64,000 nucleotides of DNA from Nitrosopumilus sp. (GTDB lineage Archaea; Thermoproteota; Nitrososphaeria; Nitrososphaerales; Nitrosopumilaceae): contig OZ245003.1 of the NCBI GenBank assembly GCA_965223425.1, positions 800,001-864,000 on the forward strand. The letters are read 5' to 3'. The position numbers were made by a program, and so were the translations under genes. Shown here in pieces: positions 1,093 through 57,004 of this stretch. The notes under the pieces were generated by a model. That model was not told the origin of the DNA. It did not search any database and was given only the letters and a program-made list of their open reading frames with translations. The first letter of the stretch is position 1; each line of letters starts with the position of its first letter.

Positions 1093-1530
1093 ATGACAGA
1101 GAGTGGTACTCGTAATTCTTTTGAGATAATCAAAGAACCATGGAATCTGTATCAAATTTCTGATAATTCTTTTCTTAGGGCTAGAACTATACTCAAAAAA
1201 ATTGAACGGATTACAAATGATAATAAAAATATTTTTGGGATTGACGCACAAACTATAACTGCAGTTGATGTGGATTCTTCTTTGAGAGAAACTCCATCTG
1301 TAAAGCCTGTATCCAAACACGAACTAGAGAGGTATGTTGAAGAAGACGATATGAATTATGATACATTGTTTCAAGAAGCTACTCAATATAGGTTAGATGA
1401 TGGGACAAAAATCAAGATTTTCACTAGTATAACAAAAATATCTAGAACGAGCCTGAGAGATGCCAGAGGTGATCCTGTCTACAATACAATCTTTTCATCA
1501 GGTGTAAAGATAGAATCTCCTGATCAATAG
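1093..1530 (+). CDS. hypothetical protein with two internal repeats
   Basis: The halves resemble each other: FEIIKEPWNLYQISDNSFLR versus YDTLFQEATQYRLDDGTKIK. Confidence 0.7.
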   Translation: MTESGTRNSFEIIKEPWNLYQISDNSFLRARTILKKIERITNDNKNIFGIDAQTITAVDVDSSLRETPSVKPVSKHELERYVEEDDMNYDTLFQEATQYRLDDGTKIKIFTSITKISRTSLRDARGDPVYNTIFSSGVKIESPDQ

Positions 1531-36972: not shown

Positions 36973-36974
36973 TA

Positions 36975-39315
36975 GCTTGTTGCATAACACGCCTAAAATC
37001 CACCACGCAGTTTAAACTGACCAACAAACACACATGTTTCTGACCGAAAAAGCTTTAGATCATGACAGCATGCTCCAAGTGTTGACCGATAATGCAAAGT
37101 ACGTACGGCGTGGTGCAGAGCTGGTAGTGCAGTACAACCCGGACTGGAGCTGCGAGGTAAGGCAGGCCAACTGCGGCAAGGAGGAGGGGGCCCAGTTCCA
37201 GTATGCAGACACCATGATCATATGACAGCCGCACTGAGAACCGCCCTCGGCGTTCCATTCAGGCAGCTGTCCGGGATGGCAGACAAGATGCTTGAGGGGC
37301 ACGACTCGCCGCACCATACCACGTGTGCAGAAGAATGGAGAAATTTGACATTAACATTCACGGCAACGCCATATACGTTCATGATGCATCCCGGCACGTA
37401 ACCCTGGTGGCCGATGCCACCGGACTCAGACAGTGGAACCGTGGAGAATGGATACGCGACAAGTGGAAGGTGGTGGTGCGCAAGGGATACATCAAGATGC
37501 ACCTGCCGGCAGATGCGGACACCGGCATGATACTGGCTGCCGTAGTCACAGACGACAGAACCGGCGACTCGCCGGTGCTGCAGGATCTGCCGGATCAGGC
37601 AGCAGCCGAACCGTTTGCCAAGGCCGGGAAGGACGATGCAAGAAAGAGGCCAAACATGCTTGCAGACGGAGTCTCTCCGCTTGCCGGTTCGGCAGGCGGC
37701 AGGGAAGAAGAAGAAGAAGTGCCAAGTGCCAGCCTGCTTGCCGACTGCGCGTACGCCTCCAAGAAAAACATGAATGCGTGCAGGAGGAAGGGCATCGAGC
37801 CGCTTGTGCCCCTCAAACCATGCTTTACTGAGAGCGGCATGGGCGATGACGGCAAGGCGTGGAACCGGGCCGTGAAAGAGCAGCTGGGAGGCAGCGCAGA
37901 CATGCACGTAGTGAATTGGATTAACAATCGGTCACAAAACAGACAACATTGTTTTATCACAAGATCTAGATCCCAGTGTATGGCAGAATCCGCATGAAAT
38001 ACAACGATTCTGCAATACCGGCAGACAGAAGGTTCCTGTCCGGCGTCTCCAGTGCGCGCCTGCGCAGCATGCAAAAAAAGGAGACAGATCCCAGGGCCGC
38101 AGCAAGGCTGCTGGCATATGCCATGCGCAAGGAGGGCATGTCCATACGCCGGATATGCATGGCCCTCAACAGGTCATATTCCACAGTACGGGGCTGGCTT
38201 GTGCGCGCCGCACAGCTTGGCACCTACGGCAGGTACGACATCAAAAATGAAGGCGCGCCAAACAAGCTCGATCCGGAACAGACAAAGCAGCTGCGCGCAG
38301 ACCTGCTGGCAGGCCCGCGCAGTTGCGGCTTTGAGTCCGGAGTGTGGACGGCACCGCTGCTGGCCGTACACATCAGAAAAAAGTTCGGCGTGCAGTATGC
38401 CACTGTCAGCATATATGACATACTGCACAGGATGGGCTTTTCGTGCAGAAAGCCGCGTCCAAAGCACCCAAGTCAGCCTCAGAATCAGAGAAAAAAGAGT
38501 TTAAAAAAAAAGCAGGGGAGATAATCCGGAGCCATCCAGACCATACGGTGGTTACAGTTGACGAGGCCTCCTTTATCATTGGGTGGAATACCAAGAACGG
38601 GTGGTACCTCAAGGGCAGGCCCGTCACCACTCCAGTCAGCCTGTCGCGCAAAAGGTTCTACTCGTTTGGGGCGCTGTACGACGGCGGCTTTGACTGCAGG
38701 TTCTATGCCAAGGCCGACAGCTACGGCTTTGTGGACATGCTCGGACACCTGCATCTCAAGCACGGCAAGATCATCGTCTTTCTTGATAACGCATCGTACC
38801 ACAAGTCAAAGATGGTCAATGATTTTGTCGACTCGTATGACGGCGACATAGTCCTTGTTTACTTGCCCGTGTACACCCCGGAGCTGAATACCACGGAGGG
38901 GCAGTGGAGGCTGTTAAGAAGGGCCACTGCAAACGTGATGTATGAAAGCACAAAGGTGATGAAGGAATCCATATGGACAATGCTGGATAGACGTGAGGTC
39001 AGGATAACAAGGATGAGCGGTTATTTATCCTAGTCACTACGTCAAGGGACTGACAGTGGAACAGAAAAAGGAGAACAGAAGATACTGGAAGTCGACTGTA
39101 GGGTACGGCAAAAGGTGGAGAATAGGGGCAATCATCTCCGCATTCAAGCGGATGTTCGGAGAGCATCTGCTCTCACGCAAATGGGAGAGCATGGTAAGAG
39201 AGGTAAGGATGAGGATTGCCATGTACAACCGGTGGGTGGCAGTAGCAATGTAGGGGAGCAGGTGCATGGATCCTGGGACGAACGGGATGTGGTCATGCCG
39301 AGTTATGCAACACAC
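36975..39315 (+). mobile_element. IS5-family element, transposase frameshifted and split by IS630
   Basis: TIR GCTTGTTGCATAAC / GTTATGCAACACAC with TA flanks; VADATGL, GEW, KMHL, LLADCAY, YGKRW.I...SAFKRMFGE. Confidence 0.8.
37909..39039 (+). mobile_element. IS630-family element (ORFs 37976-38524 and 38443-39033, -1 frameshift)
   Basis: HTH N-terminus; VDEAS, LDNASYH, YTPELNTTE. Ends TAGTGAATTGGATTAA / TTTATCCTAGTCACTA flanked by CG on both sides. Confidence 0.9.
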
Positions 39316-39319
39316 TATA

Positions 39320-39856
39320 GCATGCGCCTTTCCTGGGCTGCACGCAGTCATTGACGCATCAGAGCGGCAGATTCAAAGGCCCAAGAACAAGTCCAGGAGA
39401 AAGACACACTATTCGGGCAAAAAGAAGATGCATACGGTCAAGACACAGTACGTTGTAAACGCAGACGGCATGATTATGCACAGGACGCCGCACTCGCCTG
39501 GAAGCAGGCATGACTATTCTGTCTTCAAGTCAAAGTGCCCAAAACTTTCAGGAGATCTGAAAATCCTTGTGGATCTTGGATATCAGGGGATACGGAAGGA
39601 CTATCCGGAGCTTGACGTGTTGATCCCGTACAAGAAGCCAAGGGGCGGCAAGCTTGATGATGCGCAGAAGGAATTCAACCGGGAGCTGTCCAGAGCAAGG
39701 GTACCGGTGAGCATGTCATCTCAAGGATCAAGAAATTCGGCATAATGAGGGACAAGTTTAGGAACAGACTGTGCAGGTATGACTGCATCAATGCCATAAT
39801 CTGCGGCCTGATCAACTACAAGCTGAAGACGCGCGATTTTGTTGTGATACCATGAC
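39320..39856 (+). pseudogene. IS5-family (ISL2/DDE_Tnp_4) transposase 3' remnant
   Basis: IDASE...RPK...YSGKKKMHTVK, DLGYQG, FNRELSRARV; frameshift near 39710. Confidence 0.8.
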
Positions 39857-39893
39857 GTAACAAGGAATCAGTTTGGTGAAACGTCAGGTTTTG

Positions 39894-40730
39894 TTAGTAA
39901 TTACAGATCAGGTCTATTTTCGGAACGTCGGTGTTATCCACACCGGTCTGAAAATCCTTTTCTTCTTTCGATGACTGTTTCCATGCTTTTGCCTCTTCTA
40001 GATACTTGGTACAGTCGGTGCCATTCTCTATTATTTCACAGTCACCGTACTCGCCAACGTATGACCAGTATACTAGATCTGCATCATGCATCTCATATGG
40101 AGGTTTACCAAGCAGGGTTGCAGTCTCCTCAATCTCTAATATCTCCGGGGTCAGTACACTCATGTCGCCGAACATGTCTTGCAGGCTAGGCGTCGTTGCG
40201 TTGATCGGATACTCTGCTTCCAGATACGTGTGGAGTTTTTGCAGCGGTTCCAAGTCAGGTTGCTGGTATGTTCCGGCCAACTTGCGCTCGTGTATCACGA
40301 GTGCAGCTATTTTTTCCTTGACTACTACCGTGTCTGTCAGCACGTCAAAGTTGAACGACAACATCGTAAACCCATTTGCCTTTTCCAAATAGGGGTTGCC
40401 TTTACTGTACTCCAGCAGGTCGTTGAGATGGTTATAGGAACTCAGTGCTTGATCCAATCCACCAAAGTGCTCAATTACTGCAGGTGACATCTCATACGGT
40501 ATGAGATAATCGTCAAAGATCTTTCCTTCCTCAAGCGATATCTGCTTTAGATCGTTGATGGACAATTCTACTTGTAGTTCCTCGATGGACAATTCTACTT
40601 GTAGTTCCTCATTTTGGGCGTCTGCCGTGATTTGTGTTGTTAGTACGACACTGGCAGCAGCCATTGTGAGAACTATCCAGAATATTGTTTTATTCATGTT
40701 TAATGATTTTTGAAGGTTGGATATATACAT
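39894..40730 (-). CDS. secreted hypothetical protein, probably 3'-truncated
   Basis: Signal peptide (MNKTIFWIVLTMAAAS...), acidic, with a 27-bp tandem duplication (EELQVELSI x2). Confidence 0.65.
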   Translation of the reverse strand: MYISNLQKSLNMNKTIFWIVLTMAAASVVLTTQITADAQNEELQVELSIEELQVELSINDLKQISLEEGKIFDDYLIPYEMSPAVIEHFGGLDQALSSYNHLNDLLEYSKGNPYLEKANGFTMLSFNFDVLTDTVVVKEKIAALVIHERKLAGTYQQPDLEPLQKLHTYLEAEYPINATTPSLQDMFGDMSVLTPEILEIEETATLLGKPPYEMHDADLVYWSYVGEYGDCEIIENGTDCTKYLEEAKAWKQSSKEEKDFQTGVDNTDVPKIDLICNY

Positions 40731-40749
40731 TCATCTTCAAAGTGAAACA

Positions 40750-40835
40750 TGTGGGATATGAAAAGTAGTTTGTCCCCTATGAAACATCATGTTCCTCTCC
40801 TGTCTTCTCATCTATGACCGTTTGGCCTGCAGGCG
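40750..40835. repeat. IS481-type terminal segment
   Basis: Near-identical to 50442-50527. Confidence 0.75.
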
Positions 40836-41977
40836 TAGTAAGTACATAAAAAACCTGAACCATTTTGACAATTATTTTTGGCCAAAAGATCCAAGACAGG
40901 CCATACCGCACACACTGCATGTACAAACAAAAAAAGAGACAGGTTGCAAGGGGGGCAAAATTTCTGCCAAACACCGGCGTTGCAGACCTCAAAAGGGCAT
41001 ACAAAAAAGAGACCGATCCCAGAAGGCGCGACAGGCTGCTTGCGTACATGCAGCGCAAGGACGGCGTGCCGCTAGACAGGATTGGAAGGATGCTGGGAAG
41101 GCCCAAGTCCACCATATCTGCATGGCTCAACCGCGCACAGGACGAGGGAATACGCGCAAGGTTCGAGCGCAGCGGCAGGGGACGAAAGCACCTGATAGGC
41201 GGGCCGCAGGCAAGACAGCTTGCAGCAGACCTGGATGCGGGGCCAGAATCATGCGGCTTTGAGAGCAGCCTGTGGGATTCCAACCTGGTAAGGCTGCACA
41301 TCAAGAAAAAGTTCGGCGTGCAGTACAGCAAGACAGGCGCGCTGCAGCTGGTCAGGGAGATGGGCTTTTCGTGGAGCAAGGCGCGTCCAAAAAACCCAAG
41401 ATCAGCCTCAAAAAGAAAGCAAAAAGAGTTTCAGGAGCGGGCAAAAAAACTCGTTGCAGAAAAGTCGGCGCAGGGATACACCGTACTGGCCGGCGATGCA
41501 TCCTCGATTCAAAAGGCATCAAACAGGCCCGGCTACGGATGGAGAAGGCGCGGCAAGCGCGCCACATCCCCCTCTGTTTTGTCACGCGAAAGAAGATACA
41601 TCTTTGGAGCTTTGGCGGCAAACGCATTTTACTTTATGTTTTATGAAAAGTCAAACAGCGACAGCTTTTGCAACTTTTTGGAACGGGTTCACAAAAGATT
41701 CGGCAAGGTGCTGCTGTTTGTAGACAATGCGTCATATCACAAATCCAAAAAGGTAAAGGAGTTTCTGGAAAGATACAACGGCGAGATAGTTCTGGAGTAC
41801 CTGCTGCCGTACACGCCGGAGCTTAATCCCATTGAGATGCAGTGGAGGGTGATAAAACGGGTACTGTCTGCAAAGGTGTTTGGCACGCCAGGTGGGATGG
41901 AGCAGTCAGTACGCAAGCTGTTTGCCAGAAAGGAGATCCTGCCTGTGAAAATGTTCAATTATTTAATGTGCTAACTA
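40836..41977 (+). mobile_element. IS630-family element with single-ORF transposase (40865-41974)
   Basis: TIR TAGTAAGTACAT / ATGTGCTAACTA; GDAS, VDNASYH, YTPELNPIE. Confidence 0.9.
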
Positions 41978-41988
41978 CAGAACCATAT

Positions 41989-44609
41989 CAGCTAAGCGAA
42001 ATGTGTCCCAAGCCTGAGATCATGTCAGTAGTTCCCAGATGTAGATTTGTGCCTAGATGTAGGTTTATGCCCAGATGCCGGTGCGTTACCGCATAACTGC
42101 AATGCAAAGATCCAGATTAGGCTACGGCGTGCAATATGTCATGAAAGTCGAATTACAAGACGAACTGATCGCACGCCAGTACAATATAACATCAAACCGG
42201 TTTAAAATCCTGCGCTCGTCGTTTCAAAAGCTTGGCATGCCAATGTCTGAGAGGCACAACGCCGTATACGGATGCGGCGACATACTGGACGTGCTAATCA
42301 GGGCGTCTGAGAGAAACACGTTTGTAGAATCCCTCGTACGGCACAACAGGCTTCAAGACACGGGTGCACGTACGCCTGATGCAGACCTGGTCATGTCTGC
42401 AGTCCGTGGCGTCAAACCGGCAGACGTGCAGGCCTGGTGTGCAAGGACGCTGGCACGCACGGTGCGGCACGCCCGCCATACAGGAATGCTGCAGGACATC
42501 GACGCCATTGCAATAGACGTTACGGACATACCATACCATGGGGAGCAGCTGCAGGAGCATACAAGAAAGTCGCGTCCAAAGGCAGGAACATCCACGTTTC
42601 TCTCGTATGTCGCAGTGCACGGAGTCGGCAGGGACTCCTCGCAGATTGTCCTGGAATCGCAGCTGCTGCCGGCAAAGGAAAAACTGGCCGATTTTATAGC
42701 CAAAACACGCACGAAAATCCTCAGAGGGGGCGCACACTCAAAGACTGTGTTCCTGTACGACCGCGCCTTTTACAACGTTGACTGCATGACAGAGGCAGGA
42801 AAGGGCGGGTGCCGCTACATCATGCCTGTCATCATGAACTCCAAGATCAAGAGGACAGTCAAGATGTACAAGGACGGAAAGGCAAGCCAGGTATCGCAGC
42901 AGTCAATGACCAACAAAGACGGCGTAACTGTGACCTACAACCTTGTAATTGTCAAAAGAGACAGGAAGAAGAAGAAGAAAAAGGGGGAGGGGGAAGAGGA
43001 GGAAGAGGAGCAATACATTGCGTTTGCAACAAACATTCTCATCAGGAGCGCCAGAGCCATGACAGGCATCATACCGGAGCAGTACCGCAAGAGATGGGGC
43101 ATCGAGACGGGGTTTCGCGTCATAAAGGAGATCATGGGCAGGACATGCAGCAACTCCCTGTCTGTGAGGCTGCTGATGTTTTACCTGCCGCTGCTGCTGT
43201 ACAACCTGTGGAGGATTGCCAGGTTCTGCCTTGATGCGGGAAAGAGGCACGGAAGAGTGTCTTCTGCGGGAAAAAAACTCACCATGGCGTTGTTTATCGT
43301 GTACATTACAAGCAGAAACGAGTTGTTTGTCAATGATCGAGGCAAGTAGAACCGATGCCAGTTGCGGTTGCGGTAAATCTACATCTGGGAACTACTGATG
43401 TAGGCGGTTTGGACTGGCGTATGGGAAGTGATTCCAGCTGCACCTTAAACGTCAGCATGGTCATGACACTCTGCCTTTCAGTGCCATCAGAAAGCATTGC
43501 CCTGACAATCACCCATTCATTGTACAATACCAGAGAATGGTAAAAGTACAGCATCCGCGATTCCATGTCTGTGATCCGTGTCTTGGCCCCGCACTCCTCG
43601 ATTTTGCCGTACTCATCTTTATCCGCCATCTTTTGGCATAGACCTCGGTCCTGACTGCGGGATGGTTTGTTGCAAACCCGATGTATCTCTTTTCTGGGTC
43701 ATCAGAGTCTTTGGCCTTTTTCCTGTCAGTTATTATCATGGAATATTCAGCAGCAGAACCCAGGTTGTTTTTAATCACGTTCCCTGAGATTTTCCTTCTC
43801 TTCCCCTGTGCAAACTCTTGCAGGGCTGCCACCACGTTGTACGTATTCTTGCACGGCATCAGAAACTTTACGTTGTTTTCCTGCAGCCTGCTTATCGCAT
43901 CAACTGAGAAGAACTCACGGTCAAGCAACGCCAGGTGTATCCTGATGCCCCCATCCCTGCCATGGTTTTGAGGACGGCATCCACGTAATCAGGCACGGAT
44001 TCGAGCATCTTCAGGTATGATGCGGCAAGAACGATACGCATCTTGTCATTTACGCACTGGACTGTCATGTAACGCTCAAAGTATTTGGTTCCGTTCTTGT
44101 ATTTGGAACGTGTCAGCTCCGCCCCCGGTACCCTGTCATAGCGCGGTATGAGGTGCATATCGATTGCCATGTCCAGTCCTTTTTTTGGAAACCTGCCCAG
44201 TCTTTTGAGGGTTTCAAGATGCCTTGCTATCTTGTCTTCAAGCGTGTGCTGGATTGCATCCTGCTCAATTCCCTTGATTGCCGATGCAATCCACCTGTCA
44301 GACGGGGTATCGCAGCCTTTGCGCCTTTGCGCATCCGCCCACAGAAGAATCATGGTGGCAGCCTTTAGCATGCCGCAGTTCAGATCATCTGGTCCAAACG
44401 TTGCGTTGTACCTGTCTGATGTGTTGGCGCATGCAAGCATGTTTTTGGCGCCGTCTGCAACATCTTCATATATGCGTGGGTTGTTTAACAGTTCGCGGCT
44501 CTGTCTGGTTTTTTGTCTAAGCAACAAAAATCATGGGGTCGTACCCTCATTGATCTGTTTGCATTTTGTAGCCGATTTGGCCCGAATTAGAGCAGATTTC
44601 GCTTAGCTG
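41989..44609 (-). mobile_element. ISH3-family element with frameshifted transposase (about 43400-44527), hosting another ISH3
   Basis: 14-bp TIR CAGCTAAGCGAAAT / ATTTCGCTTAGCTG; AIDMH, LDREFF, YAKRW.I spread over three frames. Confidence 0.8.
42026..43397 (+). mobile_element. ISH3-family IS (second copy of 33493-34860; ORF 42075-43349), TSD ATGT
   Basis: Same TIR as the first copy. ATGT at 42022-42025 and 43398-43401. Confidence 0.92.
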
Positions 44610-44625
44610 ACTATCGGCGCGGCGC

Positions 44626-47600
44626 TCAGGGGAACAACACAGAGACCTCGTCTGAAAAGAGTTTTTGCTTTCCCAGCCTCTCAAAGACCTTGTAGGTGAC
44701 TGTTTTTCCGGCCCAGTCGTCCTGTATGGCATCCAGAGCAAAAGCGTCAAAGCGGGGCGAAAGGTCAGCCATCTCATAGCCTGCACCATCAACGGATCTC
44801 TCGACCCTGTACCTGTTCTCGCCTATGGAATTGGAGTCGTCCCAGCTCAGGAGGATCTTGCCGTTTACGATATTGACGCCTAGGTCTATCAGCGAATCAA
44901 AGGGCTTGCCGCCGGTAACTATACTGAAGACAGTCTGCGTCGAATCATCGCCCCTGACCCCGACCCTGACGTCATATGGAGTGTCGGGTTCCAGGTTCAC
45001 GAACCTGTACTCGTTGCCGCCTGCAACAATGTCTGCAAATTTCAGTCTGGGCGAGTCCGAAGGCGCTATCACTACCTTGTAGTCTGCAGCGTCATTCAGG
45101 GAGTCCCATCGCAGAAAGACAGAATCAGAGGAGACATCGGTAAAAGTCACAGAGACGCGACCTGCCGCAGAGACTGCTCTGGGATTATCAGAATCGTCTA
45201 ACACGGACAGGGCAGAGTCGGAATTGGGAACAGAGACGGAGATGGTCTGGGATGCGATATGGCGGAGTTGCTGGTTTAGCGTGCTAAAATGGTAGTAATA
45301 AGTGGCGCCTTGAACTATGTTGTGTGAATCAGCATAACTGTCCAAAGCAGCAGGCAGATAAAAGACAAAGTCGTAAGAAGAAGAATCGGGAGCAGAACTG
45401 CGTCTTAACTCGTAATTGGAGATGTGATCACTGTCGGCAACGTCCCAAGACAGGTCAACAGAGTCGGCAGTAGCTGCGGCGCGAAGGTTGAAGGATTCAG
45501 AAGACGCCTCGGTGGAATTTACAAAGACATAAAATATCGCAAAGGCAGAATTGCCCGAAGAGTCAGAAACAGAACAGAACACCAGGTTCGTGCCCAGCAG
45601 GAACAGTGATCCGGAAGCGGGGTCGCATGCGGGGGCAACGACGCCGTCAACCAGATCAAAGGCAGAAGGCAGGACATAGTCTACGACAAAGGAGGCGCCG
45701 GAACTAAAGAATTTAGAAAAATCAGACACGCCGCCCATTGCGGGAGGAACCCGGTCCAGCACGGTTACAGTCTGGTTTGCGCTGGCAGAGTTGCCCGAAC
45801 CGTCGGTGGCAGTCCACGTCACAACGGTGGTGCCAAGCGGGAACAATGCGGGTGCATTGTGCGTTATGGTGGGCGAGGGGTCTGCATCGTCAAAGGCAAA
45901 GGCCGTGCCGATGTTTACGTCAGTCAAAGTGCCGGTGGCCTCGACTACATAGTCGTCAGAGGGGACGATAACGGGAGGATACGTGTCTGTAGAATCAGAC
46001 AGTGAGACATCTACTGTAACACCAAAACTGGTACTGGCAGTATTTCCTGAATCGTCAGTTGCAGTGCAGATTACAGTCGTGGTGCCAAGGGCAAACACAG
46101 AGCCTGATTCTGGCGTGCACGAGACTTCAATGTCCGGATCCACGGTATCGGCAGCTGCAGGCGCATCAAAGGTTACGACGTGTGCGGTGCCTGGTTCAAA
46201 CAGTCGGGTGACATCACCGTGTGCAGATATCGTGGGGGGAGTAGTATCCCGTATGGTGACGCTTTGGGTGTCAGCAGCAGTATTTCCTGAATCGTCAGTT
46301 GCAGTCCAGGTGACTATGGTGGTGCCAAGAGGGAATGACGCAGGCGCATCATTGGTTACTGCGGGACTGGGATCCACGTTGTCAGTTGCAACGGCCTGCC
46401 CTATGTCCACTGCTGTAAGTGATCCTGCGGCCTCTGCCGTGATGTCTGGAGGAGCGGCAATCTCTGGCCTAACCGCATCCTGAATCGCACCAAGATTTAG
46501 CGTGATCGTCTGGGTGGCACTGGCAGAGTTGTTTGACGAGTCAGTGGCAGTCCAAGTTACGGTTGTAGTTCCTATTGGAAATGATGTTGGAGCATTATTG
46601 GTTATTGACGGGTGTGGGTCTACCAAGTCAGTAGCAGTTGCCGTACCGTAGTCGTCCCGGGCAAGTGCTGTAAGCGTGCCTGTTGCGTCAAAGGATGCAT
46701 CCGCTGGGACTGTGATCACCGGAGGAGTGGTGTCCCGTATTGTTACGGTCTGCATGGCAGCAGCAGAGTTGTTGGCGTCATCTGTGGCAGTCCAGGTTAT
46801 GGTCGTGACACCCAGCGAGAATCCGCCGGCAGGCGCATCATTGGTTATTGCGGGACTGGGATCCACGTTGTCAGTTGCAGTCGCGGCGCCGATGTCTACT
46901 TTGGTCAGGATGCCTGTAGCCTCACCTACAACGTCGTCCGGCACGGTGATTATAGGCGGTATGGTATCAGACAGCGGATCCCCACGCACCTCGTAATTGC
47001 CGATTTGCACTATCTCGCCTTCACTGCTGGTGGTCGCAACGAGCTTTAGCTTGACATCAGAATGGGCAAGATGGTCACCAAGATCAAAGTTGGTTACATA
47101 GTGCCAGTAGCCGTCGTCATAGTAGTCGCCTCCGTCCCATTCTGCTATTTCAGTCCAGGAATTTCCACCGTTTGTGGAAATCTCCAGAGATACGCCCTCA
47201 TTGCTACCCATGCCGGCAGAAGCGTAAAACCAGAAATTGAGATATGCAGACTCGTATCGCGATAGATTCATTGATTCAGATGCCATGGCGCACTTTATGC
47301 TACAGTCCTCAGAATATGCTATGGTGTAATTAAGAGCAGTCGCAAATGGCGGCAGAAGGCCAGCAACGGTCCTCAGATTGAATGATTCGTCACGCGATTG
47401 CGTCAGCGTCCACTTTGAGAGATCCATTTGGAAATCATCTTGCTGGATTGTTTGGGAGCCCTGCCTGTCGTATATGTCAAAGGCATAGCTTTGCGTCTGT
47501 CCCCTGAAGGATGCAACTGTGGGGGCGTAGTCAAAGACTACGATGGCATTGTTTTCGTACTCGTGGGTTCCAGATGCAGAAGCTGTGAAGAACAGCGTTT

Positions 47601-48759
47601 TGTGCGGGTCAGACCATTGGCGCTGCCAACTACAATCAGTAGAATTGATGGCACCGCAATCTAAACTCATCAAGGTGGCATAGTCGCCGGCATCGTTGAC
47701 AAAGGCGTGGGCATAGGGCACCGGTGCCGAATCAGATTTATATTCAGCTCGCGCATGGGCGCCGCCCAGCAGATGCCCGATCTGGTGGCCTACTACTAGT
47801 CCCATGTCACTTTCACGCTCACAATTTACATTGATAACAATAAATGCAGAATCAGCGTCGGCTTGAACCTGTTTTGCTTTTCCACACTCTACTTGATCGT
47901 TGTGATCAACATACAGAATCACGATGTCGGCATTGGTGGTATTACGTAAGGTGTGAGCATAATCCCCATTGTTATCATTTGTGGCAACCAATTTATCCAA
48001 ATCCGTAGCCAGATCATTAGATTCAGAAAAATCACGATCCCTGATGTTGCTAGTGTCTATTTCGTTTATTTCAATCGGCAGATCGTTATAATCAAACGCG
48101 TCGTTGGTTTTTTCAATTGCTATAAACGAGATTCTGTTAATGTTGACTTGACCATAGTTCTTGCTTGCATTATTGGTGTAAAAGAAGAGAACATCTATTG
48201 TGATTTTTTCACCGTCGCGAATCTGTTGCGGGATTTCAATATGCCGAGAAAGCGTCTGTAGGCTGGACTGTAACGCAAAAGAACCCGTCAATTCATCGGA
48301 TTGATGGTTGGATTCCGGCTGAACTTCCCAGTTTTGGCCGTACTGATTTGGATTCATTTTTTGAATCATATGGTCATCACCTGCCACAGTTATCACGTAA
48401 TTTTTACCGGGACCACTCATTTCCATGCGTATCATGCTGTCAATCACCGAGATGTAAACATAGCCGTTCTCGATTGTACCCACGTACACGTAATCTGTCT
48501 CGCTTCTCAAGCTGGTTCTCTCGTGCGTGATTTCTATGGTTTCGTCAAAGATACTCAGTTGCATCTTTGGTTGGTTTAGCGCATCCAAGTTGACATTTAC
48601 GTATGTTGCGTTGGAGACAGCAGGAGTAGTTATTTCAGGCGGTGCCCTGATGTCTGTCGGTATTTCCTCTACAAACTCGGGTATCTGTTGCGCAGATGAA
48701 TCCTGCATCAACATCACAAAAGCAGAGAGGGCAAGTACCAAAACTAGGATCTTAATCAT
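44626..48759 (-). CDS. large secreted/surface protein: reprolysin-like domain, beta-sandwich, six HYR domains, FN3-like domains
   Basis: Signal peptide; HQIGHLLGGAH and TLMS (Met-turn); repeated DT.PP...FP.GTT.VTWTATD.SGN. Confidence 0.85.
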   Translation of the reverse strand: MIKILVLVLALSAFVMLMQDSSAQQIPEFVEEIPTDIRAPPEITTPAVSNATYVNVNLDALNQPKMQLSIFDETIEITHERTSLRSETDYVYVGTIENGYVYISVIDSMIRMEMSGPGKNYVITVAGDDHMIQKMNPNQYGQNWEVQPESNHQSDELTGSFALQSSLQTLSRHIEIPQQIRDGEKITIDVLFFYTNNASKNYGQVNINRISFIAIEKTNDAFDYNDLPIEINEIDTSNIRDRDFSESNDLATDLDKLVATNDNNGDYAHTLRNTTNADIVILYVDHNDQVECGKAKQVQADADSAFIVINVNCERESDMGLVVGHQIGHLLGGAHARAEYKSDSAPVPYAHAFVNDAGDYATLMSLDCGAINSTDCSWQRQWSDPHKTLFFTASASGTHEYENNAIVVFDYAPTVASFRGQTQSYAFDIYDRQGSQTIQQDDFQMDLSKWTLTQSRDESFNLRTVAGLLPPFATALNYTIAYSEDCSIKCAMASESMNLSRYESAYLNFWFYASAGMGSNEGVSLEISTNGGNSWTEIAEWDGGDYYDDGYWHYVTNFDLGDHLAHSDVKLKLVATTSSEGEIVQIGNYEVRGDPLSDTIPPIITVPDDVVGEATGILTKVDIGAATATDNVDPSPAITNDAPAGGFSLGVTTITWTATDDANNSAAAMQTVTIRDTTPPVITVPADASFDATGTLTALARDDYGTATATDLVDPHPSITNNAPTSFPIGTTTVTWTATDSSNNSASATQTITLNLGAIQDAVRPEIAAPPDITAEAAGSLTAVDIGQAVATDNVDPSPAVTNDAPASFPLGTTIVTWTATDDSGNTAADTQSVTIRDTTPPTISAHGDVTRLFEPGTAHVVTFDAPAAADTVDPDIEVSCTPESGSVFALGTTTVICTATDDSGNTASTSFGVTVDVSLSDSTDTYPPVIVPSDDYVVEATGTLTDVNIGTAFAFDDADPSPTITHNAPALFPLGTTVVTWTATDGSGNSASANQTVTVLDRVPPAMGGVSDFSKFFSSGASFVVDYVLPSAFDLVDGVVAPACDPASGSLFLLGTNLVFCSVSDSSGNSAFAIFYVFVNSTEASSESFNLRAAATADSVDLSWDVADSDHISNYELRRSSAPDSSSYDFVFYLPAALDSYADSHNIVQGATYYYHFSTLNQQLRHIASQTISVSVPNSDSALSVLDDSDNPRAVSAAGRVSVTFTDVSSDSVFLRWDSLNDAADYKVVIAPSDSPRLKFADIVAGGNEYRFVNLEPDTPYDVRVGVRGDDSTQTVFSIVTGGKPFDSLIDLGVNIVNGKILLSWDDSNSIGENRYRVERSVDGAGYEMADLSPRFDAFALDAIQDDWAGKTVTYKVFERLGKQKLFSDEVSVLFP

Positions 48760-48960
48760 AATACTATCACAGGTAGAGAATGTTTATTATAGTTTTTTTG
48801 ATTGCAGCATCTGGCGATCAGCCGGATCGTTTTTCCTCATTAACTCCGCATTCTGACCGTTGTTTTTGGCGTACATCAGAGATAAAATGGAGATACAGCA
48901 ACAGAGATGAAGATACTTTTTCATTATTGCTTGATTATGTGTTAGTGGTGAATAATTGAG

Positions 48961-50271
48961 TCACCTAAAATATAATTTTTTTTCCAGTTTCCCCGTCTCG
49001 TCGTTGACGTAATAATGACCTGCATCGCCTTGCTTCTCTGCAAACAGTGGCTTTCCGGTTATCGCATCAATGGTGGCAAAATACGCAATAGACACATAGT
49101 CATCACTGGACCCCTTTATGGAAGGAGGAATCCAGCAGTATGTTACTTCGATTTTGTAAACTGGTCGGTCTAGTAGCATTTTTGTTATAAAAAATCCTCT
49201 CTCTCGGGGCTCATGGTTGTCTTTGCATCCAGTGTTGAGATACCTGTCATTTTCCAGCACATACTTGATGGCAGTAGCCTTGGCAGTTGCCATATCGACT
49301 GTGTCTATCTCGTCGAGGTTCTCATTCCAGTATCCAAAGTAGAAGCCGGTGAATCCACCGTAGAAATTGGCTGCAAAAGTATTAGTATACACAGTATTGC
49401 CGTTTAGAAGCTGGTAATACACGTGTCTGTAGTCGTGTGAGTAGTTTTCGAGATGGGGGTTGCCCATATACTGCGGATTCATTCCCATGTGTTCAAGAAA
49501 GTCATGTGCTGCCTGCTCGGCATCGTTTAGTTTTATCTGGTGCGGATATCCAAACGTGATTGAAACTCTATAACGATTGTCCACATACTTGTAGATGAAG
49601 ATATGTCCGGTTTCAGTAAAGTATGAGATTTTGTTGTGTGAGACGCGTTTTTCTACAATCTTGTCTCCGGTAAAACTCACGATCTTCTCTGCAAATGCGT
49701 CAGGATCATCTGGCGGCAGTTTGACGGCCGGAGGATACGTGATGTCCTGAGGTATCAGCTCCGACACTTTCTTGGATCCCATGACGTACGCAGGTTCCTC
49801 GCCGGATCCGGCACGGTTGAAGGTCGTGCATAAGTTTATGTGGACTTTGCAAATGGCGTATACAGGTTCCTCGTCGGCTCCTGTCTGGTTTTGCATGTCG
49901 GGAAGCTCTTGCATGTTTTCTGCTTCAAAAATCTGATCATCGCCTACGTTATGGTTAGTCTCCGGCATGTCGGGAAGCTCTTGCATGTTTTCTGCTTCTG
50001 CGGGCTGCTGGTTTCTGGGAACTGTGCCGTCTGTTTGTAAAAGCGTGACCCATCCGCGCTGCTCAAGCCTCTTGGCAGACGCTTCACTCACGCAGACAGG
50101 TGTGCCTCGCGACGATTCCATAAGTATCTTTGAATCCGAGCACTGCACCTGCTCAACTGGTGTGCCATCCCTGAACTGTTCGTATGGGGAGGACGTTGCC
50201 GGATCTGCAAGCGCAGGCATCATGCTCAATCCGAGTGCCAGAGCTGCCAATACCGGCGTCATCGCGTTCAT
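48961..50271 (-). CDS. secreted protein with thaumarchaeal-type N-terminal Cys motif
   Basis: Signal peptide; SPYEQ...C...PVCV...RLEQRGW; internal duplication EAENMQELPDM x2. Confidence 0.8.
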   Translation of the reverse strand: MNAMTPVLAALALGLSMMPALADPATSSPYEQFRDGTPVEQVQCSDSKILMESSRGTPVCVSEASAKRLEQRGWVTLLQTDGTVPRNQQPAEAENMQELPDMPETNHNVGDDQIFEAENMQELPDMQNQTGADEEPVYAICKVHINLCTTFNRAGSGEEPAYVMGSKKVSELIPQDITYPPAVKLPPDDPDAFAEKIVSFTGDKIVEKRVSHNKISYFTETGHIFIYKYVDNRYRVSITFGYPHQIKLNDAEQAAHDFLEHMGMNPQYMGNPHLENYSHDYRHVYYQLLNGNTVYTNTFAANFYGGFTGFYFGYWNENLDEIDTVDMATAKATAIKYVLENDRYLNTGCKDNHEPRERGFFITKMLLDRPVYKIEVTYCWIPPSIKGSSDDYVSIAYFATIDAITGKPLFAEKQGDAGHYYVNDETGKLEKKLYFR

Positions 50272-50532
50272 TGATCATGGATTGCATGTCAGAATAAAAG
50301 ACTGACTATTCTTCACACTGCTCCAAGCTCGGAACATTTCCAATTACTGCTCAATTAGGGACATGGAATCTACACTAATACGATAACGAATTATCAGTTC
50401 TGTACTTTTACTATAAGAACTAGTAGACTTTATTCATAATTTGTGGGATATGAAAAGTAGTTTGCCCCCTATGAAACATCATGTTCCTCTCCCGTCTTCT
50501 CATCTATGACCGTTTGGCCTGCAGGCGGCATC

Positions 50533-53042
50533 TTGAACACATGATAACCACCTCGTCGTAGTTGTAGTGATGAATCTACCCCTGTGTACGTATGGGCCAT
50601 GCGCCCTTGATCTTGAATGGGGCAGTCCGAGCTGCTGTGTGACTGGGCCTTGCGCCCTGATAGGTGTATGCAGCTTCCGATCCGTCAAAGATCCGAAAGA
50701 TGTGATAGAAAGGATGAGCAAAGGAACAATCAGCATAGGAATAGACATTGGAAAGAGAAAATGTGACGTATGCGTCATGGACGGGAAAGGAAAGGTTTTG
50801 CATACTGGCCAGTATCAAAACACCGTCTCAGATGCAGACAGATTCGCAGAACATGTGGCACTCAGGTATTCTGCCAGAAGATGTCAGGCAGCATGCGAGA
50901 CGACGGGCAACATGTGGAACATCACATACGGCGCCTTTGAGAGACATGGAATCGACATAAAGCTTGCCAACACCTACAAGATGGCAATAATTGCAAAGAC
51001 GGGAAAGAAGACAGACAAGATTGACGCACAAAAGATAGCAAGCGTATTGAGGATGGATTCAATACCAGAGTGTTATGTGCCGTCAGCTGACACAAGAGGA
51101 GTCCGGGCCATGGTCAGACAGAGGATCAGGACCGTAGTGACTAGGATAAATAACCGCTCATCCTTGTTATCCTGACCTCACGTCTATACAGCATTGTCCA
51201 TATGGATTCCTTCATCACCTTTGTGCTTTCATACATCACGTTTGCAGTGGCCCTTCTTAACAGCCTCCACTGCCCCTCCGTGGTATTCAGCTCCGGGGTG
51301 TACACGGGCAAGTAAACAAGGACTATGTCGCCGTCATACGAGTCGACAAAATCATTGACCATCTTTGACTTGTGGTACGATGCGTTATCAAGAAAGACGA
51401 TGATCTTGCCGTGCTTGAGATGCAGGTGTCCGAGCATGTCCACAAAGCTGTAGCTGTCGGCCTTGGCATAGAACCTGCAGTCAAAGCCGCCGTCGTACAG
51501 CGCCCCAAACGAGTAGAACCTTTTGCGCGACAGGCTGACTGGAGTGGTGACGGGCCTGCCCCTGGGGTACCACCCGTTCTTGGTATTCCACCCAATGATA
51601 AAGGAGGCCTCGTCAACTGTAACCACCGTATGGTCTGGATGACTCCGGATTATCTCCCCTGCTTTTTTTTAAACTTTTTTTTCTCTGATTCTGAGGCTGA
51701 CTTGGGTGCTTTGGACGCGGCTTTCTGCACGAAAAGCCCATCCTGTGCAGTATGTCATATATGCTGACAGTGGCATACTGCACGCCGAACTTTTTTCTGA
51801 TGTGTACGGCCAGCAGCGGTGCCGTCCACACTCCGGACTCAAAGCCGCAACTGCGCGGGCCTGCCAGCAGGTCTGCGCGCAGCTGTTCTATCTGTTCCGG
51901 ATCGAGCTTGTTTGGCGCGCCTTTGTTTTTGATGTCGTACCTGCCGCAGGTGCCAAGCTGTGCGGCGCGCACAAGCCAGTCCCGTACTGTAGAGTATGAC
52001 CTGTTGAGGGCCCTGCATATCTGGCGTATGGACATGCCCTCCTTGCGCATGGCATAGGCCAGCAGCCTTGCTGCGGCCCTGGGATCTGTCTCCTTTTTGT
52101 GCATGCTGCGCAGGCGCGCACTGGAGACGCCGGACAGGAACCTTCTGTCTGCCGGTATTACTATGGAATCGTTGTATTTCATGCGGATTCTGCCATACAC
52201 TGGGATCTAGATCTTGTGGTTGAATAATGTTGTCTGTTTTGTGAGCGATTGTTAATCCAATTCACTACGTACAGGACAGGACACGCGTGATAAACCGCGT
52301 CCACAGCCTGCTTGACAGATACGATGTGAAAATCGATGCCTCTGAGATGTATGCCATAAAGGCCGTAGAACAGATGGAGTCTGCAAGCCTGGGATCCGTA
52401 CATGACGAAATAGTACTGAGTCAGTGTGCCCGGCAGATAAGGAGCCTTACCGAGGAGATAAGACACATGGATGAACACCTGGAAAAGGAGGCATCGCTAA
52501 ACGAGGATGCAAAACTTCTTGCCAGCATGACTGGCATGGGAATCTACTCTGCACTGCTGCTTGCAGTCGAGATAGCCGACATTGTCAGATTCGAGACCCC
52601 AAAGAATCTCGTCTCATGGGCAGGCCTGTGTCCGGCGATACACCAGTCAGGCGACAAAAACTACATGGGCAGAATCAAAAAGCTTGACACCAACAGTCTG
52701 GTCAACTGGGTTATGTGCGAGGCTGCAAACACGGCGGTAATTCATGATACTAGAATGAAGGCAGTATACGAGTCTTCCAAGAGAAGACATGCAGGCAAGC
52801 ATGCACTTGCCATAGTGACTGTCGCCAACAAGATGATAACCATAGCGTGGCACATACTCAAGACCAGGACACCATACGAGTCCCGAAACGAGGGACTGTA
52901 CAAACGCAAGCTTGCCAAGATGGAAAAGGCACGCCAGAGGTGATTGGTATGTGTCATCCCACCAAATTATCTCTCCAGCGTTAGCTATAAATCTTGCACC
53001 GTACAAGTAGGCACGGATCGGAAATACAACTGGGATGCGTTG
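50533..53042 (+). mobile_element. IS110-family element, TTG at both junctions, recombinase (50714-52943) split by IS630
   Basis: IGIDIGK, ACETTG, KTDKIDA (DEDD); MTGMG, HQSG. The empty site CTTGCC is supported by the homolog at 12960-12988. Confidence 0.88.
51135..52267 (-). mobile_element. IS630-family element (second copy of 37909-39039), flanked by CG
   Basis: Near-identical sequence. An A8 run replaces A9 in the frameshift window, so this copy may be inactive. Confidence 0.9.
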
Positions 53043-53524
53043 CCGCAACACGCCCGGTGGTTAACATAGGTGCGCACAAAGGCCTGCGAAGGCGTCTCCA
53101 AGTCCTCAAAGTTCAATGACATGTGTGGCCTGCGATAGTTGTACCACTGCATGAACAGCCTATCGGATCACTCTTTCTCATCATGAACTCCTCAAATCCG
53201 TGCAGCTTGCGCTGTATCTTGCCGTGCAGCATGGAGCTTGACGTGATAACGGGCCTTGCAAACCTTGATCTGTTGTGGAATCGCAAGAAGAAACGGCCCA
53301 AGCCTGCATTCTGACCTTATAATGCTAGGGTGCATCAAGGCACGGAGATTCTGCGCATGATATTCTGATATGACTGTTTTTTCTGTCATGTTTGGCCGGT
53401 TTTTCTGTAATATGTCGTCCCCCAACGCTGCTATGTGTGGGTATGACATGATCATAATATGTTCATGTGTGATGTATGGATGGATTACGCATACGATCTA
53501 TTATAGACATCTTACCCTCCATGC

Positions 53525-55932: not shown

Positions 55933-55976
55933 GACTGAACAGAAAAGCTTATTGATCACCAGATCAGCTGCAAGCT

Positions 55977-56966
55977 GTGAACGAAGTACAGGCACTGACG
56001 GAGGCCATGCGTGCAGAGAAGAACATCAAGATTCGTGACAGGATGCCGGCAGTGCGCGGAGTCCTCATGGGACACTCTACGGCAGATCTTGCAGATATTG
56101 CCAACGTAGACCAACGCACAGTCCAGCTGTGGGTATGCAGGTTCAGAAAATATGGCGCAGATGGCCTCCGGGACGCGCCAGGAAGAGGCAAAAGCCCGGA
56201 CGTCTTGTACGCATTGATAGAAAAGCTGGCCGACAGGCTTTGCAAAAAGAACACGCCGACTCCGCGAAAGCTGCGCAACCAGATACGTCGCAAGACAAAC
56301 AGAAGATACAGCATGTCCAACATGCGCAGGATAATGCGCGTCTTTGGATTCTCCTGCAAGACATCCACGACAGTATACGGGAACAGTGCAGGCGCCGACG
56401 AGGTACGACGGTGGCAAAAAGACGCCTCAGCAGTCATTTCACGTGCAAAAAGGCGTGGATTCCGGATTGCGATACAGGACGAGTCGATATTCATAAGGAT
56501 CGGTGAGGACGGCAAGAGGCTGTGGTCGCGCATAGGCGATCCCGTGGAGATAGAAAGGTCAGGACGCAGGGACAAGACAGTCGTATACGGGGCGCTTGCA
56601 GATGACGGCACCAGACTGATGCGCCTGTATGACAAGTTTGACGGCCCTACGTTTGTGAGGTACCTGGCAGAGGCCCGCCGCAAGTGGGGCAAGGTGCTGC
56701 TGATAACGGACAATGCCGGCCAGCACAAGACGGCGGCGGCAAGAAAATACTTGGAGGATCACAAGGGAGAGATCGAGATACTCTACCTGCCTGTTGCCAC
56801 TCCGAAGCTTAGTGCCATCGAGGCGTTGTGGAAGCAGGCCAAGTACAGGCTGATCACGGCAGCACACTATGACACGCTTGAAGATCTCAAACACACAGTG
56901 TCAGAGTACTTTAGGACATGTTCCATTAAACTTGACATCTACAGGTATCTAGCTCGTTGTGTTTGA
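55977..56966 (+). CDS. IS630-family transposase (third type; element ends not resolved)
   Basis: HTH; IQDES, TDNAGQH, TPKLSAIE. Confidence 0.85.
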   Translation: MNEVQALTEAMRAEKNIKIRDRMPAVRGVLMGHSTADLADIANVDQRTVQLWVCRFRKYGADGLRDAPGRGKSPDVLYALIEKLADRLCKKNTPTPRKLRNQIRRKTNRRYSMSNMRRIMRVFGFSCKTSTTVYGNSAGADEVRRWQKDASAVISRAKRRGFRIAIQDESIFIRIGEDGKRLWSRIGDPVEIERSGRRDKTVVYGALADDGTRLMRLYDKFDGPTFVRYLAEARRKWGKVLLITDNAGQHKTAAARKYLEDHKGEIEILYLPVATPKLSAIEALWKQAKYRLITAAHYDTLEDLKHTVSEYFRTCSIKLDIYRYLARCV

Positions 56967-57004
56967 GGCGAAATTTTCAATGATCGCCACTCTAGCCTCT
57001 TACG

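Follow-up and report, generated by a model that had tools for sequence, protein, structure and literature searches.

IS630-family insertion sequences in a Nitrosopumilus genome with CG or pyrimidine-purine target duplications in place of TA

INTRODUCTION

The insertion sequence (IS) IS630 takes CTAG as its target. In the IS630/Tc1-mariner superfamily as a whole, insertion at TA with duplication of this dinucleotide is presented as a defining trait, at least in the relevant sections of two reports (PMC2170065, PMC8533490). According to the mechanistic part of the former, the transposase of ISY100 alone excises the element by double-strand breaks and inserts it at TA, the two strands being cut 2 bp apart (PMC2170065). 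In the strand-transfer complex of Mos1, as summarized by its authors, the adenine beside the thymine attacked on each strand flips out and is retained through adenine-specific backbone contacts involving V214, and the structure is offered there as a template for the redesign of target specificity (PMC5481204). In a survey of mobile elements of thaumarchaea, IS630 is noted for a single species, and the portion concerned gives no target data (PMC6563490). Here we analyze a stretch of 64,000 nucleotides (the window; C1:800001-864000) from the chromosome (C1) of a Nitrosopumilus sp. genome (G000), which carries two copies of one IS630-like element, termed T1, and one copy of another, T2. A preliminary description of the window had proposed that the T1 copies duplicate CG instead of TA.

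We report that T1 and T2 are very probably cut-and-paste ISs of the IS630 family, about 1.13-1.14 kb long with TAGT ends, which duplicate CG (T1) or any pyrimidine-purine dinucleotide (YR; T2 and a third type, T7). The element boundaries, the 2-bp length of the duplication and the duplicated bases are demonstrated below by comparison with unoccupied sites.

RESULTS

Both T1 copies in the window are flanked by a duplicated CG

The two T1 copies of the window, A and B, lie in opposite orientation, are 94-98% alike over their full length in a within-window comparison, and both read CG-(TAGTGA...TCACTA)-CG, where round brackets enclose the element. The junctions of copy A, ...GACATGCA-CG-(TAGTGAATTGG...CCTAGTCACTA)-CG-TCAAGGGA, and those of copy B, which is inverted, ...AGGAC-CG-(TAGTGACTAGG...CAATTCACTA)-CG-TACAGGAC, are identical to the arrangement CG-[TA...TA]-CG reported in the preliminary description. 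Because each copy interrupts a multi-copy host IS, we used uninterrupted paralogs of the hosts as empty sites. There are seven such paralogs for the DDE_Tnp_1 host of copy A and three for the IS110 host of copy B, and each contains one CG without TA. In a DDE_Tnp_1 paralog (L111, 392-1198), a frame of 268 amino acids (aa) crosses the site and reads ..ADMHVKGRTAEQKKE.. / ..GGSADMHVKGRTAEQKKE..; the frame of an uninterrupted IS110 paralog reads ..RQRIRTVQDRTRVINRV.. / ..VRQRIRTVQDRTRVINRVHSLL.. across the site.

The preliminary description had argued that taking TA as the target site duplication (TSD) leaves a +4 frameshift in both hosts, and that taking CG as the TSD restores both frames. The former follows directly from the sequence, in which 4 bases are then added per site, and the latter agrees with the uninterrupted paralogs of both hosts, which read straight through. 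Two observations had been named there as fatal to CG duplication. One was the presence of CGTACG in uninterrupted host copies, for which we looked and found a single CG instead; the other was duplication of TA only in further copies, of which there was no case, in the canonical sense, among the T1 and T2 copies. The T2 copy of the window, CG-(TAGTAAGTAC...GCTAACTA)-CA, starts at position 40836 after GCAGGCG. It was correctly described as following CG, and its empty homologous site likewise lacks TA, since the stretch 50442-50527 continues with GCAGGCGGCA.

T1 duplicates CG throughout the genome

We searched the genome with both elements by BLAST and obtained full copies as well as fragments. 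For T1, 19 full copies of 1130-1134 bp were found, 18 with CG/CG flanks and one with CA/CG. Many of these copies lie within other multi-copy ISs. Empty sites were available for 10 copies and numbered 87; at each of them the left and right flanks share exactly 2 bases, CG is present once and TA is absent. When fragments are included, CG accounts for 41 of the 44 dinucleotides flanking T1 ends, compared with 3.1% of dinucleotides in the genome, a pattern far beyond chance. One T1 copy is flanked by CT/CT, and its empty site, located in T2 DNA, holds a single CT (G000:C1:343387/345892). The 18 copies with matched flanks occupy 17 distinct target contexts, with a weak preference for A-CG-B: A precedes CG at 12 of 17 sites and T never does, and A never follows it. 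Since an intact 354-codon frame is present in 7 of the 19 copies and the copies are 97-100% alike, the T1 family appears to have been recently active.

Two further observations concern T1. The same CG of an IS110 element holds T1 at C1:2134104-2135235 and at positions 51135-52267 of the window, with identical 80-bp flanks; the two T1 copies are 97.7% alike and have closer relatives elsewhere (99.4% and 98.3%), which suggests either that a hot spot was hit on two occasions or that conversion followed an old duplication. In addition, the T1 frame crosses a run of 8 or 9 A (38490-38510 and 51655-51680 in the window), at or near which the non-intact copies are split. These splits could reflect decay, or the run could serve regulation as a site of frameshifting or slippage.

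T2 and T7 duplicate pyrimidine-purine dinucleotides

The 27 full copies of T2 are 1139-1161 bp long, and identical flanks were observed in 18 of them (CA in 8, CG in 5, TG in 4 and TA in 1). For nine copies, 106 empty sites were identified, all with a flank overlap of 2 and each with one copy of the dinucleotide. YR was found in 60 of 60 flanks when all T2 ends, including those of fragments, were counted, compared with a genomic YR fraction of 23.6%, and the ends of T7 are flanked by CG or TG in 6 of 6 cases. The target contexts of the 18 matched T2 copies are all distinct and show a weak preference for C-YR-G, with G at +1 in 17 of 18 and C at -1 in 10 of 18. CA/CA and TG/TG are direct rather than inverted repeats, so they represent a duplication located outside the terminal inverted repeat. 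The proposal of a CG-targeting IS630 subgroup thus stands for T1, and for its relatives in other genomes (see below), but does not extend to T2, which takes any YR step.

Unequal flanks were observed in 10 copies, one of T1 and nine of T2, including the T2 copy of the window. In each of the 10, the sequence that follows the left flank in its paralogs is unlike the right flank. Because the two flanks come from different places, we ascribe these copies to recombination between copies or to adjacent rearrangement; CA/TG flank pairs would match the outcome expected of inversion between oppositely oriented copies. The preliminary description had taken the unmatched right flank of the window T2 copy to mean that only the left junction was supported. 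The mismatch itself is explained by this copy being a recombinant of two repeats. We also considered the mismatched T2 flanks as an argument against duplication and rejected it, as left and right flanks derive from different repeats.

T1 and T2 belong to the IS630 family

The transposases were compared with NCBIfam model NF033545 (cut-off 100 bits), against which T2 scored 191.7 bits and an intact T1 copy 207.7 bits; the halves of a split T1 frame from the window scored 93.5 and 101.1 bits. The T2 frame has 369 codons with helix-turn-helix (HTH) domains and DDE_3, and the Pfam matches (HTH_23/29/32/33 and DDE_3) correspond to the paired N-terminal HTH domains and C-terminal DDE domain (RNase H-like) of the family. 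In the motif DNAxxH ... LNxxExxW, the second D and the E are separated by 35 residues in T1, T2 and T7 and by 34 in T4 and T6, two further types described below; the first D of the triad was assigned solely by alignment. Over the first 44 bases, the two ends agree at about 22-24 positions, clustered in the outermost ~26, and both elements fall within the ~1.0-1.4 kb length with short inverted repeats expected of IS630 members. A 2-bp TSD was found at all 87 (T1) and 106 (T2) empty sites, and excision footprints were absent from the paralogous sites, where every overlap is exactly 2. The elements do not, however, follow the TA target of the family: CG flanks T1 in 18 of 18 matched copies, TA flanks only 1 of the 18 matched T2 copies, and empty-site junctions hold no TA. 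T1 and T2 therefore qualify as IS630 members on their transposase, their size, their inverted repeats and a 2-bp stagger, with the TA target as the one trait that they lack.

An AlphaFold model of the T1 transposase (pLDDT 88.9) best matched full-length Mos1 (4U7B, 5HOO, 3HOS; E ~1e-13, 15-17% identity) and also resembled the catalytic domains of Sleeping Beauty and SETMAR. A search of solved structures with a sequence profile of the T1 clade gave a marginal match to the Sleeping Beauty catalytic domain only (E 0.01).

Sister elements in the same genome duplicate TA

Other IS630-family types occur in the same genome. T4 reads TA-(TAGTCT...CACTA)-TA in 7 of 7 copies, and for two of these copies we found 16 empty sites with a single TA, one of which lies in the IS110 copy of the window. 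Because the empty site holds one TA, the inserted T4 DNA itself begins and ends in TA. T1, T2, T7 and T4 share the TAGT end and differ only in the two duplicated bases outside it; the terminal TA belongs to the element. T6 is flanked by TA in 2 of 2 copies and T3 by C-TA-G in 3 of 3, as judged by inspection of the copies, and no empty sites for T3 or T6 were found in the genome.

Target choice follows transposase clades in other genomes

In a class-level search, relatives were detected in 38 of 300 other genomes (39 of 301 including G000), nearly all belonging to the same family as G000. We compared 60 places from 15 genomes, and a near-identical partner defined the ends for 48 of them. A CG-type element in G236 has CG/CG in 2 of 2 full copies, together with a truncated copy with CG at its sole end, and a CG-type element in G292 shows two CG/CG copies and one CT/CT. 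A T2-like element of the YR type in G250 shows two CG/CG copies, one TG/TG and one CT/CT; among the loci compared, no paralog with the same sequence as the host site of one G250 copy was found. A further element in a Nitrosopumilaceae record has YR in 10 of 10 flanks (5 copies, 2 matched pairs). By a profile scan of named genome contigs, in which loci repeating already counted places were not counted twice, we identified in OZ243974.1 a T1 relative (55% protein identity) with CG/CG in 16 of 16 copies and a T2-like element with three CG/CG copies and one each of CA/CA, CA/TG and CA/AC. IS630 elements of Nostoc (L181, L182) carry TA on both sides, with unrelated outer bases.

The transposase tree comprised 33 rows, namely the 7 types of G000 and 26 of 29 locus representatives, after 3 frames shorter than 280 aa were dropped. 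The CG, YR, TA and 4-bp types (the last described below) fall into separate clades. Six of the seven type-clades were starred or had 91-94% ultrafast bootstrap support; the larger 4-bp group was weak (76/58), and the deep order of the tree was unresolved. These results indicate that target choice tracks the transposase clade, not the host, in other Nitrosopumilaceae genomes as well.

A few duplications depart from these rules: AA/AA in a TA-type element (L082, G036) and CT/CT in CG or YR types (L054 of G250 and L057 of G292). We also examined a GRPR/AT-hook-like motif as a candidate target determinant. The T1 clade has GAPNK compared with GRPxK, but TA-type elements of G203 and G036 have GAxCK as well, and the candidate was rejected for want of a correlation.

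Close relatives of the T1 transposase (35-60% identity) occur on bins assigned to Gammaproteobacteria, Latescibacterota and Poribacteria (L114, L148, L168), which points to either binning errors or transfer within one community. A scan of metagenome contigs with the T1 protein yielded one weak locus from 40 candidate stretches, and a homolog search returned 72 proteins at E <= 1e-20, none of them informatively named. The stretch around a unique T1 site is present in six public runs from 4 studies; in four of these runs, examined as Logan contigs, contigs stop at the T1 ends and none spans the element.

Another clade carries 4-bp direct repeats

In other IS630-family clades, perfect 4-base direct repeats lie outside TAG-type ends, mostly TGCA in the context (T)A-TGCR-T(A). 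Nine repeats are non-palindromic, eight of them being TGCG, TGCT, TGGA, CACA, AGCA, TCCA and, twice, CGCA. The ninth, a second TGCG, flanks the fifth copy of an element in G281 (L195 1506-2797; G281:C1:1217156-1218455), whose orthologous site in G129 holds no element and has the sequence CCTATA-TGCG-CATATC, with an overlap of exactly 4. The 4-bp duplication is thus verified at one empty site, and the remaining repeats would represent the same event, judging from their direct repetition. For a TGGA-flanked element of G152, the search for an orthologous empty site matched 3 of 71 genomes, all through copies of the element, with no flank match. Directly before the catalytic E, the catalytic-domain alignment shows TPQ(L/H)NP in every 4-bp-type protein sampled and mostly TPELN in the TA, YR and CG types, a difference that may reflect ancestry rather than cause.

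Base composition and the location of copies

Repeated DNA makes up 20.4% of chromosome C1 and has a GC content of 51%, compared with 38.7% elsewhere. The density of CG is 2.2-fold higher within repeats and that of TA 1.6-fold lower, and repeats hold 36% of CG sites but 14% of TA sites. At least one flank lies in repeated DNA for 14 of 19 T1, 19 of 27 T2 and 3 of 7 T4 copies. These values are consistent with the earlier suggestion that CG targeting steers T1 into GC-rich IS DNA, although the same trend is expected if harmless insertions survive preferentially. In this AT-rich genome, CG targeting shifts the available sites toward GC-rich mobile DNA, which may lower the cost to the host. As a separate observation, the IS load of G000 differs strongly in composition from the host chromosome.

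Features of the window

The features are listed in Table 1. Positions 41978-44610 form a nested pile of mobile elements, in which the DDE_Tnp_1 IS at 42025-43398 has perfect 24-bp inverted repeats and ~34 copies in the genome. Between mobile elements, the minus strand of 44626-48759 encodes a large surface protein, a frame of 1377 aa with five HYR domains and a fibronectin type III domain. This frame is built of ~240-bp units repeated six times, and it has a weak match to a reprolysin-like metallopeptidase at or below the Pfam cut-offs.

Table 1. Coordinates of T1, T2, their hosts and related features (window positions unless a locus is named)
Feature	Position	Strand	Basis
Left part of host IS with DDE_Tnp_1 transposase (IS4/IS5 type), interrupted by T1 copy A	36973..37908	+	Repeat extent; Pfam PF01609 on 37323-37997; intact paralog L111
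CG, left TSD copy of T1 copy A	37907..37908		7 paralogous empty sites with one CG
T1 copy A, IS630 family, 1131 bp, ends TAGTGAATTGG...CCTAGTCACTA, transposase frame split (37976-38524 and 38443-39033)	37909..39039	+	Pfam HTH and DDE_3; NF033545 on both halves
CG, right TSD copy of T1 copy A	39040..39041		Junction; empty paralogs
Right part of DDE_Tnp_1 host IS	39040..39320	+	Frame resumes ..VKGLTVEQKKE.. as in paralog
86-bp left flank of T2, ending in CG, matching 50442-50527 (adjacent to the IS110-type element on its left) at 98% identity	40750..40835	+	Within-window repeat
T2 copy, IS630 family, 1142 bp, ends TAGTAAGTAC...GTGCTAACTA, intact transposase frame 40865-41974	40836..41977	+	Flanks CG (left) and CA (right) in unrelated DNA; NF033545 191.7 bits
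Repeated element without assigned family, right flank of T2, interrupted by DDE_Tnp_1 IS at 42025-43398	41978..44610		Repeat; open reading frame of 424 aa, PF01609
IS110-family host element (DEDD_Tnp_IS110 and Transposase_20), interrupted by T1 copy B	50532..53072	+	Pfam; intact paralog frame RIRTVQDRTRVINRV
CG, one TSD copy of T1 copy B	51133..51134		3 empty paralogs
T1 copy B, 1133 bp, inverted relative to copy A, split transposase frame	51135..52267	-	Junctions; alignment
CG, second TSD copy of T1 copy B	52268..52269		Junctions; empty paralogs
Unoccupied TA in the window IS110 copy (GAGATG-TA-TGCCAT), occupied by T4 in another IS110 copy (C1:1872673-1873781)	52350..52351		T4 empty-site overlap of 2 bp, single TA
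T3 copy, 5'-truncated, IS630-family type with canonical C-TA-G flanks	55933..56995	+	Genome copies of T3
Empty ortholog of the fifth G281 copy	L204 ~1501-1504		Flank overlap of 4; other 4-bp loci L061-L099

DISCUSSION

We propose that T1 and T2 are each mobilized by the one HTH-HTH-DDE transposase (DD35E) that they encode, acting on imperfect inverted repeats of ~26 bp that start with 5'-TAGT. Excision would proceed by double-strand breaks, as in ISY100, after which the two 3' ends would be joined to the target with the usual 2-bp stagger. The cut would fall at 5'-CG-3' (T1) or at any 5'-pyrimidine-purine-3' step (T2 and T7), not at 5'-TA-3', and gap repair would then duplicate CG or YR. All of these targets read 5'-Y-R-3' on both strands, the same geometry as TA. 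Pyrimidine-purine steps are the most deformable and would fit a bend-and-flip step. By analogy with the 'bend, flip and trap' of Mos1, each subunit may read one strand as Y0-R1. T2 and T7 would trap either purine and tolerate either pyrimidine, which would mean that T2 no longer tells A from G, or T from C, and T1 would require C and G, a gain of specificity.

The alternative that keeps some plausibility, though a very unlikely one, is that the transposase is ordinary or relaxed and that the pattern arises from the host (DNA modification, chromatin or repair) or from survival in GC-rich repeats. Indeed, CG is 2.2 times denser in repeats than in unique DNA (5.57% and 2.48%), most surviving copies lie in repeats, and the insertion products tabulated for ISY100 include occasional non-TA cases, 2 of 39 at AA/TT (PMC2170065). 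However, T4 (7/7), T6 (2/2) and T3 (3/3) use TA in the same line of descent, and such a coexistence of TA-, YR- and CG-duplicating sisters in one host argues against a host cause. Moreover, the pattern follows transposase clades across several genomes, and the 41 CG among 44 T1 end flanks compare with 5.6% CG even within repeats.

It is highly improbable that the flanking TA is the duplication, with an element starting GTGA.. having inserted into CG-TA-CG or YR-TA-YR. TA is the rule of the superfamily as stated in both reports that we cite for it (PMC2170065, PMC8533490), and every copy reads YR-TA-[...]-TA-YR, which without empty sites looks like TA duplication in a palindromic context. Nevertheless, TA is missing from every empty site, 87 for T1 and 106 for T2, and the overlap is 2 throughout, so that this explanation is refuted by the empty sites. 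Furthermore, both host frames would shift by +4, whereas intact paralogs read through, and CA-TA-CA would not be palindromic.

Equally poor are the chances that CG is part of the element (CGTAG...CTACG), inserted without duplication or with a decayed one. BLAST alignments of T1 do extend through an invariant CG on both sides, but the empty sites keep one CG, and if CG...CG were excised, the hosts would lose two bases and their frames would be disrupted. The position varies in T2 and T7 (CA, TG, CG, TA), matching as a direct repeat, and the CT/CT copy of T1 has a single CT in its empty site. The empty sites and the variable direct repeats of T2 refute this explanation. Finally, repeated counting of one event through segmental duplicates of a few insertions has practically no probability and is refuted by the 17 distinct target contexts of the 18 matched T1 copies, to which the 18 of 18 of T2 are added; two T1 copies do share an IS110 site with identical 80-bp flanks (C1:2134104 and C1:851135), but this pair is only 97.7% alike, with closer relatives elsewhere (99.4% and 98.3%).

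Several points nonetheless weigh against our proposal that the transposases of T1 and T2 choose CG and YR. Everything is read from resident copies. The empty sites of T1 and T2 are paralogs, that is, other copies of the host ISs, and not the same locus before insertion. Selection among survivors could sharpen a preference, although it could not create a 2-bp duplication of CG. The exceptions, CT/CT and, in a TA-type relative, AA/AA, mean that specificity is not absolute, and the GRPR-like motif, one candidate determinant, does not correlate with target type. The elements may also already stand in ISfinder together with their direct repeats. In a literature search, the scope of which lay outside ISfinder and TnPedia, we found no description of CG or YR duplications in the IS630 family.

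On a broader scale, we lean slightly towards a radiation within the Nitrosopumilaceae in which the enzyme sets both the target bases and the stagger, from TA through any YR to strict CG, with 4-bp TGCA-like targets in other clades. If this is true, it would be the first natural specificity series in a superfamily for which TA is taken as a rule without exception, and comparison of these closely related enzymes, all acting on TAGT ends, could show what determines the target and help to re-target mariner and Sleeping Beauty vectors. T1 and T2 illustrate how target choice has changed in nature within a family that serves genome engineering, and relatives that keep the fold and the ends but have CG, YR or 4-bp targets, beside TA sisters in one genome, form a ready-made comparative set. 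There is also a consequence for annotation, as tools that seek TA-flanked inverted repeats place the ends of such elements two bases too far in and call the wrong duplication.

Compared with known systems, T1 and T2 resemble IS630 of Shigella sonnei and ISY100 of Synechocystis in transposase family, HTH-HTH-DDE architecture, a length of ~1.1 kb, short imperfect inverted repeats and a 2-bp duplication. They presumably share the chemistry outlined for ISY100, in which the 3' ends are cut exactly and the 5' ends two bases inside (PMC2170065). They differ in target, as the insertion data given for ISY100 are 'almost exclusively' TA (34 of 39 products; PMC2170065), in contrast to CG in T1 and YR in T2 and T7. 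T1, T2 and T7 also differ from ISY100 and IS630 in that TA forms the outermost bases of the element. T4, T6 and the relatives in G203 and G036 have the same TAGT-type ends, architecture, host and DD34E/DD35E spacing as T1 and T2, but duplicate TA and belong to separate clades.

Mos1, the closest solved full-length structure to the T1 model, has the 2-bp stagger in common with T1. The flip-and-trap of purine 1 on each strand, as depicted for the Mos1 complex (PMC5481204), fits a Y0-R1 reading of the T1 and T2 targets. TA is obligatory for Mos1, whereas T1 accepts guanine and T2 either purine. Sailor elements (DD82E) depart from plain TA duplication in the data presented, with 'TATA' in most elements, but they are still TA-based, and that part of the report contains no CG or YR case (PMC8533490). 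From the TA-(...)-TA pattern of T4, a TATA-type logo can be a TA duplication beside a terminal TA. For Sleeping Beauty, the non-TA integrations described demonstrate that a Tc1-type transposase is able to break the TA rule, but they are rare, a small minority with an asymmetric consensus (PMC5801840), whereas integration outside TA is the norm in T1 and T2.

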